The position numbers and the translations under genes were made by a program. Below the pieces are notes generated by a model. The model was given only the letters and a program-made list of their open reading frames with translations, was not told where the DNA came from and ran no database searches. 44,513 nt of DNA, taken from sequence record NC_031113.1. One strand, 5' to 3'. This DNA is from Escherichia phage Gluttony. Of this stretch, positions 15,701 through 34,835 are shown in pieces. How positions within the stretch are numbered: position 1 is the first letter of the stretch; each line of letters opens with the position of its first letter.

Positions 15701-15744
15701 AGTGTGAATATAGTGAATAGTTATGCAGTTTTATTGCATAAAGT

Positions 15745-15902
15745 AAGCGGGACAAAAAGCGGGACAAACAAGGGGCGGGACAAAGCGGGACAGCACCCCC
15801 GTCCCGCCACGGATGGCGCGGCTTCCAGAGGAGCGGGACAGCGGGACAGCACCCCAGTCTTTCAGACTAGACGGGGGTCAATGGCCCCCCTCGTCTGAGA
15901 CT
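15745..15902. repeat. GCGGGACA iteron-like array A with 3' hairpin module; putative origin or regulatory cassette
   Basis: At least six GCGGGACA copies at about 11-bp spacing, then CAGTCTTTCAGACTAGACGGGGG...CCCCCCTCGTCTGAGACTG; near-identical to 31965..32124. Confidence 0.6.
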
Positions 15903-16062
15903 GAATAAAATCCGGGGATTGCAAAATACACGGCAGCATGATGCTAAGTGCGGTCGTCGATGAACTAGGCAACCAATGCAGGTTGTATTATGCTGAGTGA
16001 AAATGCGGTTTGCAGTCACAGCAGATAGCGATCAACTTTTTCATGCGCGTGATTAATATTGG

Positions 16063-30335: not shown

Positions 30336-31061
30336 ATGGGTTATCAACTCCCCAACGGGTCCAGCGTCCAGATCGGGTCCGTATTAGGCAGCGGCATCGC
30401 TGTTACGGCAGCTACCAACGCCACCGCATCAATCTCTGACCTTACGCAAGGTTGCGTAATTACCTGCGCGGCATCGCATGGCCTGGTTGTTGGCGACGTT
30501 GTTATGTTCACTAAAACCCCGTGGGTCCGAGCGCTTAACCGCGCATTCATCGTGGGTAAAGTAGCCGAGAACGACGTGACGCTGGCGCGCTTCGACTCCT
30601 CTGACGTCACAAAATACCCGACCGGCGCTTTCAGCGTAGGCACTCCGGGCGAAGTGGTGAAGGTGTCGAGCTTTATCGACTTCCCTTTCATTACTAACGT
30701 TGCCGTGTCGGGTGGCGACCAGCAGACTACTACCTTCCAGCCGTTGCAGGTGAACACCGCAATCAGTCTTAACACCACGAAAAACCCGTTGGTACAGACT
30801 TACACCTTCACCCACGACGAAGAAGACCCGATCCGCCCAATCCTGGAAGACCTGGACGACACACAGAAAACCACTGTGATCAAGTTCACTAACCCAGCGG
30901 CAGCAAGTGGCAAAGGTGAAATTCGTATTTACCCGGCTAAGGTATCTTTCCAGAAGATTCCTTCCGCTGAAGTAAACAACGTGGAAACGGTACAGTCTAC
31001 TCTGACCATGCAGTCTGATATGGTTATCTACCGTAAGGATCTGGTCGAGGCATTGTCTTAA
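30336..31061 (+). CDS. Major tail (tube) protein
   Basis: 241 aa immediately upstream of the chaperone pair; followed by a terminator. Confidence 0.65.
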   Translation: MGYQLPNGSSVQIGSVLGSGIAVTAATNATASISDLTQGCVITCAASHGLVVGDVVMFTKTPWVRALNRAFIVGKVAENDVTLARFDSSDVTKYPTGAFSVGTPGEVVKVSSFIDFPFITNVAVSGGDQQTTTFQPLQVNTAISLNTTKNPLVQTYTFTHDEEDPIRPILEDLDDTQKTTVIKFTNPAAASGKGEIRIYPAKVSFQKIPSAEVNNVETVQSTLTMQSDMVIYRKDLVEALS

Positions 31062-31091
31062 TTTGGTCGCTTAAATAGCGAGTGTTAATAT

Positions 31092-31116
31092 GGGGCCAGC
31101 ACGGCCCCTTTTTTAT
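31092..31116 (+). terminator. Intrinsic terminator or attenuator after the major tail gene
   Basis: GGGGCC-AGCAC-GGCCCC followed by TTTTTTA. Confidence 0.65.
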
Positions 31117-31493
31117 TGGAGAATACTACAATGGCTAAAGCACCACTCTTCACTCTTGACCCTAAGCCGACCTTTAAGCTGCCGATTGAGATCCCGCGCC
31201 CTGGTGAGAACGAACCCGGCAAGATGACGTTTACCGTCCGTCACCGCCCGATCGACGAATTTTCGCAGACCATGCAGGACACCGAACGCAAGCTGTCGGA
31301 ATATGACGACAATGACCCGGACGGCTTTAACGTTATGGTCGAGGCCATCATGCACGTCGCAGAAGGCTGGAATCTGCCAGACGAATTTAACGCGGAGAAC
31401 GTCCGCCGCCTGGTGGTCAACTATCCTCGCGCGTTCGGTGTGTTCCATACGTCGTACTATCTCGAACTGATGGGCTTGCGTGAAAAAAACTAA
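31116..31493 (+). CDS. Tail assembly chaperone (lambda gpG-like)
   Basis: 125 aa, acidic, position before the tape measure; ends just after a slippery heptamer. Confidence 0.75.
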   Translation: MENTTMAKAPLFTLDPKPTFKLPIEIPRPGENEPGKMTFTVRHRPIDEFSQTMQDTERKLSEYDDNDPDGFNVMVEAIMHVAEGWNLPDEFNAENVRRLVVNYPRAFGVFHTSYYLELMGLREKN

Positions 31494-31810
31494 TTGAGGC
31501 GGCGCGACGCTTTTATGGCCCGCCGCCACCCTCCGAAGATTTAGCCGCAAGTTTATGGGGTGCGTCCCCCGAAGATGTTTGTCCGCCTGTTGCGTTATGG
31601 CCTGACAACGCGAAGATAGTCGCAGTATTCACGGATTGTGCCACGCAATGGCGCACCGGATTTGGTGGCGCATACGGCATCGATTACGGCGTGCTGGAGT
31701 GGTTATTTAAGATGCACGGTATCGAAAACGAGCAGCGCGCGTTTAAAGATATCAAGCTAATGGAACGAATCGCGCTTGATGAAATGGCGCAGCAGAACCA
31801 CGCACAGTGA
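31116..31810 (+). CDS. Tail assembly chaperone frameshift product (gpGT-like) via programmed -1 frameshift at 31484..31490
   Basis: Slippery A_AAA_AAC in the 0 frame; the -1 frame is open for 106 codons from 31490 to the TGA at 31808..31810. Confidence 0.7.
31484..31490 (+). other. Programmed -1 ribosomal frameshift slippery heptamer A_AAA_AAC
   Basis: Codons gaA AAA AAC TAA; fits the X_XXY_YYZ pattern. Confidence 0.7.
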
Positions 31811-32124
31811 AGCGGGACAAAGCGGGATGTCCCGTTTTGTCCCGCCTCTGTAAAACTGCATATCTAATCACTCCCATTGCATAAACCAAAAGAGGGACAG
31901 GCGGGACGTCCCGTTTTGTCCCACCCCATAAATGTGCATATCTATTCGCATTTCGTGCATAAAACAAACGGGACAAAAAGCGGGACAGACCAGGGGCGGG
32001 ACAAAGCGGGACAGCACCCCGTCCCCGCCAGTGCTGCCGCTGGTTTCAGCCGATCGGGACAGCGGGACAGCACCCCAGTCTTTCAGACTAGACGGGGGTC
32101 TGGCACCCCCCTCGTCTGAGACTG
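31811..32124. repeat. GGGACA iteron-like array B with palindromic units and the same 3' hairpin module as array A
   Basis: About 14 GGGACA copies including palindromes GGGACAAAGCGGGA-TG-TCCCGTTTTGTCCC; 32055..32124 near-identical to 15833..15902. Confidence 0.65.
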
Positions 32125-32192
32125 CATAGGGTTTGTTTGAAATTCGCTGATACAATGTCAATCGGCAACTGAATAAAAAAGGGGACTGCATA

Positions 32193-34835
32193 ATGGCAGA
32201 TCAGGCAGCAGGCATCACGCTAAAGGCGGATGTTGCACAAATCAGAACGGCGAATACTGTGCTTGATTCATTCGCACAGAAATCCGAGAACACAGAAAAC
32301 AAGGTTAAGAAATTAAACGACACCCTCGGCAAATCCAAAAAGGTGACGAGTGACGCCGCGGGCGGAATGGAGAAGCTGGCGACTGAATCGCAGCGCGCTG
32401 CCGATGGCATGACGAAACAGGAGCGACTTGCCAACAGGTTAGGCATGTCGACCAAAAACCTGGGCTTTGCCTCGCGTAACGCCGCATTCCAGTTACAGGA
32501 TATCGCAGTTACGCTTGAGATGGGGATGCCGGTACACCGCGTTATGCTTCAGCAGTTACCGCAGTTAACTGGGGCGTTCGGGGGATTGGGTAACACGCTG
32601 CGTTATGTGGCGGGATTCCTCGGCCCAGTAGGGATCGGCATTGCCGCACTAACGGCAACGTTAGGCGTCGGCGTGGCAGTTACGACCCGAGCAGAAAACC
32701 AGGTCGCAGCGCTTAACAAGACGCTGGCGCTGTCGGGTAACATTTCCGGCCTCACCGCTAACCAGATCCTTGTGCTGTCTGAGAACGCTGAGCGCATGGG
32801 CTGGTCATTCCGCAAGACGCGAGACACCATTCAGGCACTGGCGGCGGCGGGCGTTAAAGCGGGTGCGGACTTCGGCGCGCTGGCGAAAGTGGTGAATGAC
32901 TTTGCGAAGGCGTCTAATCAGCCGATCTCTGACGTGGTTGAATCCATCTCAAAATTGTCGAACGACCCGGTCGGTGGACTGCGCGCACTGGCGGACCAGT
33001 ATCACGTCGTTACCGAGGCGCAGATCCAGCAGGTGCAATCACTAGTGACGGCTGGTCGAGAAACCGAAGCGGTGGCGCTGGCGAACAAAACCGCCGCTGC
33101 GTCGTTCTCCAGCATGACCAATGAGATCAAGTCCAACATGGGTACGCTCGAGCGGTCTATGAACGTCGTCACATCTGCAGCCAAATCCATGTGGGACGCC
33201 ATCCTGGATGTAGGACGCGCGCAGTCATCGAATGAGTCCGAGATGAAAGCGCGTGAATCCTTGCAGCGCATGACCACGGCTTACTATGCCGAGATGAAAG
33301 CGGTAAACGCTGCCGGTGGGGTGATGACCGAGGCGCAGAAAGCGCGTATTAACATGCTTTACAGCGAACTGGTCGCCCAGGAAAAGGTGGTGGCGTCGCT
33401 CACCCTGCGCAACCGCGCCGAGCGAGACAACGCCAGCGCCGCTGACGAAGCAGCAAAGGCGAACGAGGAGGCAAACCGCACCGCCCGCGACCGCGCCGCG
33501 TTTGAGAAGGAGTACGCAACCAACGCGAAGCGGCGAGCCGACGAGATCGCCCGCCTCAATTTGCTGAATAAGCGCGGTGTTATTAACGAGAAAGAACTAG
33601 CCGAGGCGGTGAAGCAGGTCAACGAGCGCTACAAAGACCCAGCACCGAAAAAGGCGGCGGCAATTCGAGTCGATGCCGGGCTGAAAATGCTGGAAGTCGC
33701 GCGAAGCGAATTAGCCCAGCTTCGTGAGTCTGGAAAGCAGATCGAAGCCAACGCATCGACGCAGACCCGCACGCAACGCGCGCAAGCGGCCCTTAACAAG
33801 CTGATCGCGGACCATGAACAGTTAATCGCGGCGAGCAAAGAAAGGGCGCTGACGGCAGCAGAAAAGCAGCAAATGGCGGAGTTCGAGTCGGTTAAATCGG
33901 TACGCGAGCAGATCGTCGAAGAAGCCAAATTGCTGGACGCGAAAGAGAAGCAGATCAAGGCACACGCCCAGGTCGAAGCATTCATCAAGAACCAGAACGC
34001 CGAGCTAAAAGCCACCGCGGCGGGCTATGCGCTTTCTACTCGCGAAGCGGCTAACCTGCGCGAAGAGTTGCAGCTAATTGACCGCCTTCAGCGTGCCGGT
34101 GCTAACGATACTGATATTGACAAGGCGGTGTATAAGCTGCGTGAGGTTCAGGAAGCACAGACCGGTGCTAACGCCTCATTATGGGATGGATTCAGTCGCG
34201 GGCTTCGCGATAGTGTGGATGAAATGGGTAACGGATACACGCAGATGTCGTCACTCACAAAATTCACGTTCGGTGCTATGCAGGACACGATGAACGAGTT
34301 TTTCGAGACTGGCAAGCTGAACGCAAAAGATATGGTTAAGTCCATTCTGAGCGAATTAATAAAGCTGGCTACCTCGCAGGCGTTCAAGTCCATCGTTAGC
34401 GCTTTCGGTGGCGACGGCGGCAAAAACGGATTGTTCGGCGCTATCTTCTCGGGCCTCACTAAGAATGCGGACGGCGGAGCGTACACCGGAGGCAATCTCG
34501 CGGCCTATTCGGGGCAAGTGGTGAGCCAGCCTACCTTTTTCAGTTATGGCGTCCAGGCGTTCGCTAAGGGCGCTGGGTTGATGGGTGAGGCTGGACCCGA
34601 GGCCATCATGCCACTGAAGCGCGGGCCGGACGGGAAACTGGGCGTTGCCGCGTCTGGCGCAGGCGGTGGTATGGTCGTGACGACTAACGTTTACACGGGG
34701 ACCGGTAAGACGGATACCAGTGTTGGCGGGCCGGACCCACGTACCGCGCAGGCGTTCGGCAAGCAAATCACCGAGGCGGTGAAGGCCGAGATCGTGAAGG
34801 CGATGAAACCGGGTGGTGTACTTTACAAACGATGA
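32193..34835 (+). CDS. Tape measure protein
   Basis: 880 aa, Ala-rich with coiled-coil regions, downstream of the chaperone pair. Confidence 0.85.
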   Translation: MADQAAGITLKADVAQIRTANTVLDSFAQKSENTENKVKKLNDTLGKSKKVTSDAAGGMEKLATESQRAADGMTKQERLANRLGMSTKNLGFASRNAAFQLQDIAVTLEMGMPVHRVMLQQLPQLTGAFGGLGNTLRYVAGFLGPVGIGIAALTATLGVGVAVTTRAENQVAALNKTLALSGNISGLTANQILVLSENAERMGWSFRKTRDTIQALAAAGVKAGADFGALAKVVNDFAKASNQPISDVVESISKLSNDPVGGLRALADQYHVVTEAQIQQVQSLVTAGRETEAVALANKTAAASFSSMTNEIKSNMGTLERSMNVVTSAAKSMWDAILDVGRAQSSNESEMKARESLQRMTTAYYAEMKAVNAAGGVMTEAQKARINMLYSELVAQEKVVASLTLRNRAERDNASAADEAAKANEEANRTARDRAAFEKEYATNAKRRADEIARLNLLNKRGVINEKELAEAVKQVNERYKDPAPKKAAAIRVDAGLKMLEVARSELAQLRESGKQIEANASTQTRTQRAQAALNKLIADHEQLIAASKERALTAAEKQQMAEFESVKSVREQIVEEAKLLDAKEKQIKAHAQVEAFIKNQNAELKATAAGYALSTREAANLREELQLIDRLQRAGANDTDIDKAVYKLREVQEAQTGANASLWDGFSRGLRDSVDEMGNGYTQMSSLTKFTFGAMQDTMNEFFETGKLNAKDMVKSILSELIKLATSQAFKSIVSAFGGDGGKNGLFGAIFSGLTKNADGGAYTGGNLAAYSGQVVSQPTFFSYGVQAFAKGAGLMGEAGPEAIMPLKRGPDGKLGVAASGAGGGMVVTTNVYTGTGKTDTSVGGPDPRTAQAFGKQITEAVKAEIVKAMKPGGVLYKR

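Follow-up and report, generated by a model that had tools for sequence, protein, structure and literature searches.

A predicted −1 frameshift on A_AAA_AAC joining a tail assembly chaperone to a DUF1799 domain in Escherichia phage Gluttony

The G/T locus and its −1 frame

We analysed a stretch of 44,513 nucleotides (nt) from Escherichia phage Gluttony (record NC_031113.1; hereafter the window), in which genes for a tail terminator (PF13554), a tail tube protein (PF08813), G, T and a tape measure protein (PF06791 and PF09718) follow one another. This order matches the canonical V–G–T–H arrangement, with the tail tube and tape measure genes on either side of the G/T pair. The features that frame the pair are as follows.

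30336–31061: tail tube gene, PF08813
31092–31117, + strand: intrinsic-terminator-like hairpin GGGGCC-AGCAC-GGCCCC followed by TTTTTTATTG, between the tail tube gene and G (terminator scan and sequence)
31118–31121, + strand: Shine–Dalgarno motif GGAG, 9 nt upstream of the G start codon (sequence)
31131–31493, + strand: gene G, tail assembly (tape measure) chaperone, PF08748; standard decoding product of 120 amino acids (aa) and 13.96 kDa
31812–31845, + strand: 15-bp hairpin of inverted GCGGGACA repeats, −31.3 kcal/mol, z −7.68, 2 nt past the T stop
32193–34835: tape measure gene, PF06791 (TMP_2) and PF09718 (lambda-type C-terminal domain)

The G product matches the whole of the Phage_TAC_4 profile (PF08748, positions 1–124 of 124; E 1.4e-23, 83.9 bits against a gathering threshold of 21.1) and phrog_569 (E 9.8e-41). 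A preliminary description of this DNA, made from its letters, had placed the start of the chaperone at 31116, which proved to be an in-frame TTG upstream of the gene; the likely start is the ATG at 31131, which has GGAG nine nt upstream and is the G start in every GenBank record inspected. The terminator-like hairpin at 31092–31117 probably reduces transcription into G/T relative to the tail tube gene. On the other side of the pair, a repeat-rich non-coding block of 382 nt parts T from the tape measure gene. The first GCGGGACA repeat begins at 31812, so that the −1 frame does end just before the block that the preliminary description had called iterons. The hairpin at 31812–31845 delimits the G/T unit on its 3′ side and carries a rho-independent terminator annotation in the HK578 record; its terminator function is uncertain, because it has no clear U-tract. 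An Rfam scan of 31000–32300 returned noise only, far below the gathering scores.

At its 3′ end, G reads CGT GAA AAA AAC TAA in the zero frame, and the canonical heptamer A_AAA_AAC that the preliminary description had picked out there lies at 31484–31490. The frame one nucleotide back has a TGA at 31481–31483 and its next TGA at 31808–31810, and is thus open from 31484; past the slip point it holds 106 sense codons (31490–31807), the very number first described. By our estimate, a −1 frame of 108 open codons would arise by chance in less than 1% of cases. The G frame and the −1 frame are jointly open over the 7 nt at 31484–31490 only, and because the two frames overlap over the heptamer alone, a shift is possible nowhere else. 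The features of this junction are as follows.

31484–31490, + strand: slippery heptamer A_AAA_AAC, an X_XXY_YYZ motif in the correct phase for the G frame, invariant in 84/84 related loci
31491–31493, + strand: G stop codon TAA, abutting the heptamer, as the stop does in 84/84 loci; putative stimulatory role
31490–31810, + strand: T extension, 106 codons of the −1 frame plus TGA, with a DUF1799 domain and without a start codon of its own before codon 67
31131–31810, + strand: predicted GT fusion, join(31131..31490, 31490..31810), 226 aa and 25.79 kDa as deduced from its parts
31498–31527, + strand: GC-rich hairpin GGCGGCG ... CGCCGCC, candidate stimulator, starting 7 nt 3′ of the heptamer

Seven consecutive A residues, those of the heptamer included, run from 31483 to 31489. 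The heptamer occupies the single phase-correct position. As a bare word, AAAAAAC is not enriched, with 4 copies in the whole window against 7.6 expected; its count by itself carries no weight, and the case stands on position, phase and conservation. The first ATG, GTG or TTG of the T frame in Gluttony is codon 67, which leaves a callable stub of only 39 aa, below the 40-aa cut-off of the open-reading-frame list. The extension is accordingly absent from a simple track of open reading frames, as had been noted at the outset.

The peptide encoded by the −1 frame is a full-length DUF1799 domain (PF08809, positions 1–80 of 80; E 1.2e-20, 74 bits against a gathering threshold of 26) and matches phrog_680 with an E value of 1.2e-30; moreover, both the G and the T halves match phrog_17368, a profile of 213 positions. 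A homologue search with the T peptide alone found HK578 gp16 only, and one with the 226-aa fusion found two G homologues only and no in-frame G–T fusion. A profile query was needed to reach the wider T family: it returned 1707 homologues, and among the matches listed all carry PF08809. No natural in-frame G–T fusion occurs among the best 120 of these 1707 profile matches, so that one-frame fusions in other genomes lend the case no support. The AlphaFold model of the T peptide has a pLDDT of 88, and its best viral fold matches in BFVD are the C-terminal halves of 210–236-aa proteins named ‘Tape measure chaperone’, from Serratia phage Scapp and Klebsiella phage Solomon; chaperones of phiCbK-like, chi-like and Loki phages match more weakly. 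Against the PDB, the fusion sequence had no match at E values up to 10 and a Foldseek search with the T model gave nothing below an E value of 1. The comparison of the −1 peptide with T domains that the preliminary description had suggested thus led to the C-terminal part of Webervirus frameshift products and to the C-terminal halves of chaperones. By our analysis, a very widespread family of chaperones has DUF1799 as its T domain.

The slip site and the T frame are conserved; a candidate hairpin lies downstream

A 2-kb stretch around the slip site is 100% identical in Escherichia phages Lust and Pride, and 90–96% identical in about 150 other members of Dhillonvirus, the HK578-like siphoviruses of E. 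coli. The two-frame arrangement is present in 152 phage records at 80–100% identity, and a tblastn search with the T peptide reached 1152 phage records. We compared 84 related loci, from Dhillonvirus, T1-like and phiES15-like phages and many enterobacterial prophage contigs, in which the identity of T ranges from 42% to 98%. In all 84, AAAAAAC is invariant and a stop codon follows directly. That stop is TAA in 31 loci and TGA in 53, a switch that is synonymous in the −1 frame, where it exchanges the leucine codons CTA and CTG. Among the 61 distinct contexts, the codon that holds heptamer position 1 is GAA, CAA, GTA or GCA, thus encoding four amino acids and always ending in A, and the neighbouring arginine codon uses all four third bases. 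The C at heptamer position 7 never varies, though a T in its place would, on a reading of the sequence, be synonymous in either frame.

More distant homologues keep a related layout. The heptamer is G_GGA_AAC in a Ralstonia phage and A_AAA_AAC in cyanophage S-CBS1, each directly followed by TGA; Klebsiella phage PMBT64 carries CAA_AAG one codon ahead of the stop. In four distant loci in which G ends with AAAAAAC TAA, the stretch homologous to T opens on the final base of the heptamer, with the end of the G stop codon 3 nt further on.

Substitutions within Dhillonvirus follow the codon structure of both frames. Across 18 Dhillonviruses, the variable sites at first, second and third codon positions number 10, 6 and 73 in G, and 23, 8 and 68 in the T frame, which has no indels; the corresponding numbers for the following intergenic block in the same comparison are 49, 56 and 48. 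Judged by this pattern, the −1 frame is under purifying selection.

The GC-rich hairpin at 31498–31527, whose distance of 7 nt from the heptamer is a canonical spacing, has a predicted stability of −17.1 kcal/mol (z −2.05; 6/200 shuffles), a modest excess over shuffles in Gluttony. In an ungapped alignment of 45 distinct sequences, its seven-pair core is 91.7% paired, compared with 11–44% when the 3′ partners are slid by 1–3 columns. Four of the seven core pairs show compensatory changes, which come from few independent lineages and bear on a structure drawn from the same 45 sequences. At the same offset, hairpins of different sequence occur in the T1-like phage SH2 (z −4.1) and in S-CBS1 (z −3.6). 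Folding of a longer stretch of 137 nt gave no excess stability (z +0.91) and no sign of a larger structure or pseudoknot. For the downstream stimulatory structure envisaged in the preliminary description there is thus a candidate, the hairpin at +7 nt, with core pairing above the slid controls; RNAalifold found no consensus structure in the 45 downstream segments, and the hairpin at this offset is weak in phiES15-like and prophage lineages. The 31498–31527 hairpin is likely to be a frameshift stimulator.

Proposed mechanism and alternatives

We consider it very probable, from the sequence evidence above, that a programmed −1 ribosomal frameshift on A_AAA_AAC yields both G and GT in the manner of lambda. 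Most ribosomes would translate G from 31131 to 31493 and stop at the TAA, giving the 14-kDa chaperone, and a minority would move back by one nucleotide on the heptamer. The slip would most likely be a tandem one, by tRNA-Lys from the P site and tRNA-Asn from the A site; that heptamer position 1 is conserved favours this over slippage in the P site alone. The GC-rich hairpin, which starts 7 nt downstream, probably aids the slip, and the adjoining stop codon perhaps does so too. Shifted ribosomes would read the 106 codons of the −1 frame into a GT protein of 26 kDa, with the predicted junction ...GLREKN-LIEAARR... If lambda is a guide, coating of the tape measure protein would fall to the G part common to both products, and the rare T (DUF1799) domain would bring in the tail tube protein; G and GT alike would be absent from the virion. 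We infer the ribosomal nature of the shift, its efficiency, what the hairpin and the stop codon contribute to it, and the binding partners. The efficiency of the shift is probably low, because in E. coli A_AAA_AAC is far less shift-prone than A_AAA_AAG (PMC5009743), and this weak shiftiness fits the small GT:G ratio of lambda, about 1:30 (PMC5009743).

The abutting stop might itself be part of the recoding signal, in a termination-coupled ‘shifty stop’ −1 frameshift. Ribosomes would then have a second chance to slip, with AAC in the P site while the release factor competes for UAA or UGA. We put this forward tentatively, as a possibility that falls short of likely; it is suggested because the stop abuts the heptamer in 84/84 loci and also in the Ralstonia phage and the cyanophage. 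If it held, the G:GT ratio across PF08748/PF08809 would depend on termination efficiency, beyond tandem slippage and the hairpin.

A G–T fusion could in principle be reached without any ribosomal shift, through transcriptional slippage in which RNA polymerase adds one A within the A7 run at 31483–31489 in some of the transcripts, whose ordinary translation would give the fusion junction ...REKK-LIEAARR... Seven A residues do stand in a row, and one added A opens the same frame as a −1 ribosomal shift, so that the two are inseparable by sequence alone. However, the bacterial cases of productive transcriptional slippage that have been described involve runs of about nine A or T (PMC5009743), and in T1-like loci the run is just six A (GCAAAAAAC, GTAAAAAAC). 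Homologues carry G_GGA_AAC (Ralstonia) or CAA_AAG (PMBT64), motifs of ribosomal shifting rather than homopolymers, and a polymerase-based account would leave unexplained the invariant C7, the phase-correct placement and the hairpin at 7 nt. We therefore regard transcriptional slippage as improbable, and retain the ribosomal frameshift as the preferred reading.

T might instead be translated separately, from the ATT at 31493, from the GTG at codon 67 or by reinitiation after the G stop, and several annotations take this form. The HK578 and SO-1 records give a 104-aa gp16 starting at the ATT, the internal GTG at codon 67 is the annotated start in Pride and JLBYU37, and PGAP calls hundreds of stand-alone open reading frames of 80–105 aa named ‘DUF1799 domain-containing protein’; moreover, the G stop lies 1 nt from the ATT, which makes termination–reinitiation geometrically possible. 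Against this, there is no Shine–Dalgarno motif upstream (GCGTGAAAAAAAC), and no T start is conserved, because codon 2 of the T frame differs by lineage: it is ATT, ATC or ATA in some and AAA or AAG in the T1-like phages, so that not even a near-cognate start is kept. The first canonical start, which in other loci lies at codons 9–74, falls inside the conserved domain and would cost conserved residues. In every locus compared, the homology of T reaches back to the first codon of the −1 frame. Separate translation would also leave unexplained the invariance of the heptamer at synonymous positions. We hold it to be very unlikely.

That the −1 frame is a fossil, a chance open frame or the result of a sequencing indel in one gene, with G alone being made, has a negligible probability and is, as far as sequence data reach, refuted for the fossil and chance readings, given that the same arrangement recurs in those 152 records and in the 84 of 84 more distant loci, that third-position periodicity is strong in a T frame free of indels, and that the Pfam match is full-length and the fold confidently predicted. 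The G–T-like frameshift fusion proposed in the preliminary description thus appears well supported, by the pairing of PF08748 with PF08809, synteny, the invariant slip site, purifying selection and the hairpin.

Comparison with known systems and annotation status

The G and GT proteins of lambda are tail assembly chaperones (Levin, Hendrix & Casjens 1993; Xu, Hendrix & Duda 2004, 2013, 2014; summarised in PMC5009743), and the G/GT frameshift is conserved across long-tailed phages (Xu et al. 2004; reviewed in PMC5009743). As in lambda, the two open reading frames of Gluttony are flanked by the tail tube and tape measure genes. The second, in the −1 frame, lacks a start of its own and would be entered through an X_XXY_YYZ slip close to the 3′ end of G; an abundant short protein and a rare long one are predicted here too. 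The tape measure protein of Gluttony moreover has the lambda-type C-terminal domain PF09718. The two systems differ in sequence family, with PF08748 and PF08809 in Gluttony and PF06894 (G) and PF06223 (T) in lambda: searched against Pfam, the Gluttony G and T sequences did not match PF06894 or PF06223, and the lambda proteins matched their own families only. An alignment of DUF1799 with lambda T by hhalign had a probability of 0.8%, and the short GL-Y-VL motif that it aligned is not significant. The term ‘gpT-like’, which the preliminary description had used for the domains to be compared, is apt for the position, architecture and inferred role of the extension, but not for detectable sequence homology. 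Lambda T overlaps H, whereas T and the tape measure gene of Gluttony are 382 nt apart, and the lambda heptamer G_GGA_AAG lies 15 nt before the G stop, whereas A_AAA_AAC of Gluttony abuts it. By analogy, the Gluttony pair would work as lambda G/GT does, from a different protein family. The invariant stop right after the slip site is one mild oddity of what would otherwise be an ordinary G/GT frameshift.

Closer counterparts are found in Webervirus. The records of phages KLPN1 (KR262148) and Sweeny (MK931443) contain a j2 CDS annotated ‘tail assembly chaperone frameshift product’, the C-terminal part of which is DUF1799. The frameshift chaperones of Drexlerviridae have a homologous T domain, with 25–35% identity and the same fold and gene order. 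In this group, the shift is placed within two codons of the position in Gluttony and an annotated terminator directly follows the GT stop. The slip region in Webervirus reads GCA AAA GTT TAA and not A_AAA_AAC followed by a stop. A frameshift is also mentioned in the genome announcements of the T1-like phages Skenny and Solomon (PMC6763657, PMC8407766). The T1-like genera Tunavirus and Warwickvirus share AAAAAAC-TAA with Gluttony, and in them G and T are annotated as two separate genes.

The gp15/gp16 pairs of HK578 and of Sodalis phage SO-1, the type records of Dhillonvirus, are orthologues of the Gluttony pair, with 92% protein identity, and their records bear the notes ‘pfam DUF1789’ for gp15 and ‘pfam DUF1799’ for gp16. 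Unlike the join predicted here, they are entered as two independent genes, with gp16 beginning at a non-canonical ATT and no ribosomal slippage recorded. In Acinetobacter phage Loki, AAAAAAC next to the stop of the chaperone gene (gp12/gp13) has been proposed as a −1 frameshift site (PMC5313236). The Loki chaperone is a weak fold match to the T model (rank 31, E 0.6); unlike in Gluttony, its sequence family is unrelated at a detectable level and an extra gene lies between the chaperones and the tape measure gene. Outside phages, A_AAA_AAC is reportedly used by E. coli ribosomes at low efficiency in the insertion sequence IS1, where it fuses the two open reading frames insA and insB′. The IS1 frameshift makes a transposase and not a chaperone, its proteins share no homology with the pair described here and its stop codon is not adjacent to the heptamer.

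The mechanism proposed for Gluttony is a textbook one, and the frameshift is already annotated for the homologous Webervirus; what is new is the unannotated case in Dhillonvirus. That routine annotation would miss the product, as the preliminary description had foreseen, agrees with the records: no GT join was seen among about 60 Dhillonvirus records compared by feature name, about 10 of them in detail. The record OM262540 (vB_EcoS_L-h 1M) was left out, because its slip region contains ambiguous bases and one CDS is mislabelled. A literature search found no paper describing a frameshift in a Dhillonvirus. The Dhillonvirus records inspected annotate G alone, a 32–76-aa fragment or a separate gp16, and GenBank KX534341 annotates the 39-aa T stub.

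The main value of the finding is thus one of annotation, affecting about 150 Dhillonvirus genomes in GenBank together with many T1-like genomes and prophages. Because the affected records list the 39-aa stub, a stand-alone ‘DUF1799 protein’ or nothing, the predicted 226-aa GT is missing from protein databases, and with them from virion and host-interaction analyses. The long and short isoforms matter in that tail assembly chaperones control tail length assembly, and E. coli phage panels in wide use, BASEL among them, include Dhillonviruses.

Hairpins flanking the chaperone genes

Three kinds of hairpin lie around the tail assembly chaperone gene (G) and its −1-frame DUF1799 extension (T), one of them also present in a distant second copy:

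31092-31117: strong intrinsic-terminator-like hairpin (GGGGCC/GGCCCC then T6), downstream of the tail tube gene and upstream of G
31812-31845: very stable 15-bp hairpin of inverted GCGGGACA repeats, beginning 2 nt past the T stop
32076-32124 and 15855-15903: long hairpin in two copies, CAGUCUUUCAGACUAGACGGGGGUC...CCCCCCUCGUCUGAGACUG

The position and sequence of the first hairpin are consistent with attenuated read-through, which would set expression of the tail tube gene far above that of G, and that of G above that of the predicted frameshift fusion (GT). The second folds at −31.3 kcal/mol (z −7.7), and the 25-nt core of this structure recurs at 31901-31925. It has no clear U-tract; a rho-independent terminator is annotated at this site in the record of phage HK578. 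Because an annotated terminator also directly follows the GT stop of Webervirus Sweeny, an interruption of transcription after GT, ahead of the tape measure gene, may be a trait common to Sweeny and the present phage.

A duplicated octamer block

There are 13 copies of the GCGGGACA octamer in the window, where 2.1 would be expected, and 12 of them fall into two clusters (15747-15848 and 31812-32069). One cluster, in the gap that separates T from the tape measure gene, is the stretch termed an iteron block in the preliminary description. A duplication of about 190 nt (15714-15905 and 31935-32125) has 88% identity between its copies. The long hairpin copy at 32076-32124, around 70 nt ahead of the ATG that starts the tape measure gene, folds at −25.6 kcal/mol (z −2.7) and that at 15855-15903 at −28.4 kcal/mol (z −4.0); the two differ only in the loop and adjoining positions, with the remaining stem identical. 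Neither copy matched a family in Rfam. A replication origin is disfavoured as a reading of the repeats; the duplicated block looks more like a putative repeated regulatory module, composed of a binding-site array and a hairpin.

Slip sites and gene records across the family

The slip site is not uniform in the DUF1799 chaperone family. Most members have A_AAA_AAC-stop, with G_GGA_AAC-TGA in Ralstonia phage YO015_6, CAA_AAG plus one codon and a stop in Klebsiella phage PMBT64, and GCA AAA GTT TAA in Webervirus; in every case compared, the G stop lies within two codons of the slip site.

The two ORFs are entered as separate genes in the records of Synechococcus phage S-CBS1, PMBT64 and T1-like phages. 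In enterobacterial prophages, likewise, ORFs called on their own by PGAP under the name 'DUF1799 domain-containing protein' number in the hundreds. HK578 gp16 (NC_019724, 10795-11109), the one Dhillonvirus sequence in the searched protein collection that covers nearly all of T, is entered as an independent 104-aa protein with its ATT start translated as Met. In OM262540 (vB_EcoS_L-h 1M), a CDS named 'major tail protein' in fact spans G and continues beyond the slip site, and ambiguous bases (X in translation) fall exactly around the heptamer and the hairpin 3′ of it, which together suggest poor sequence quality here and a wrongly named feature.
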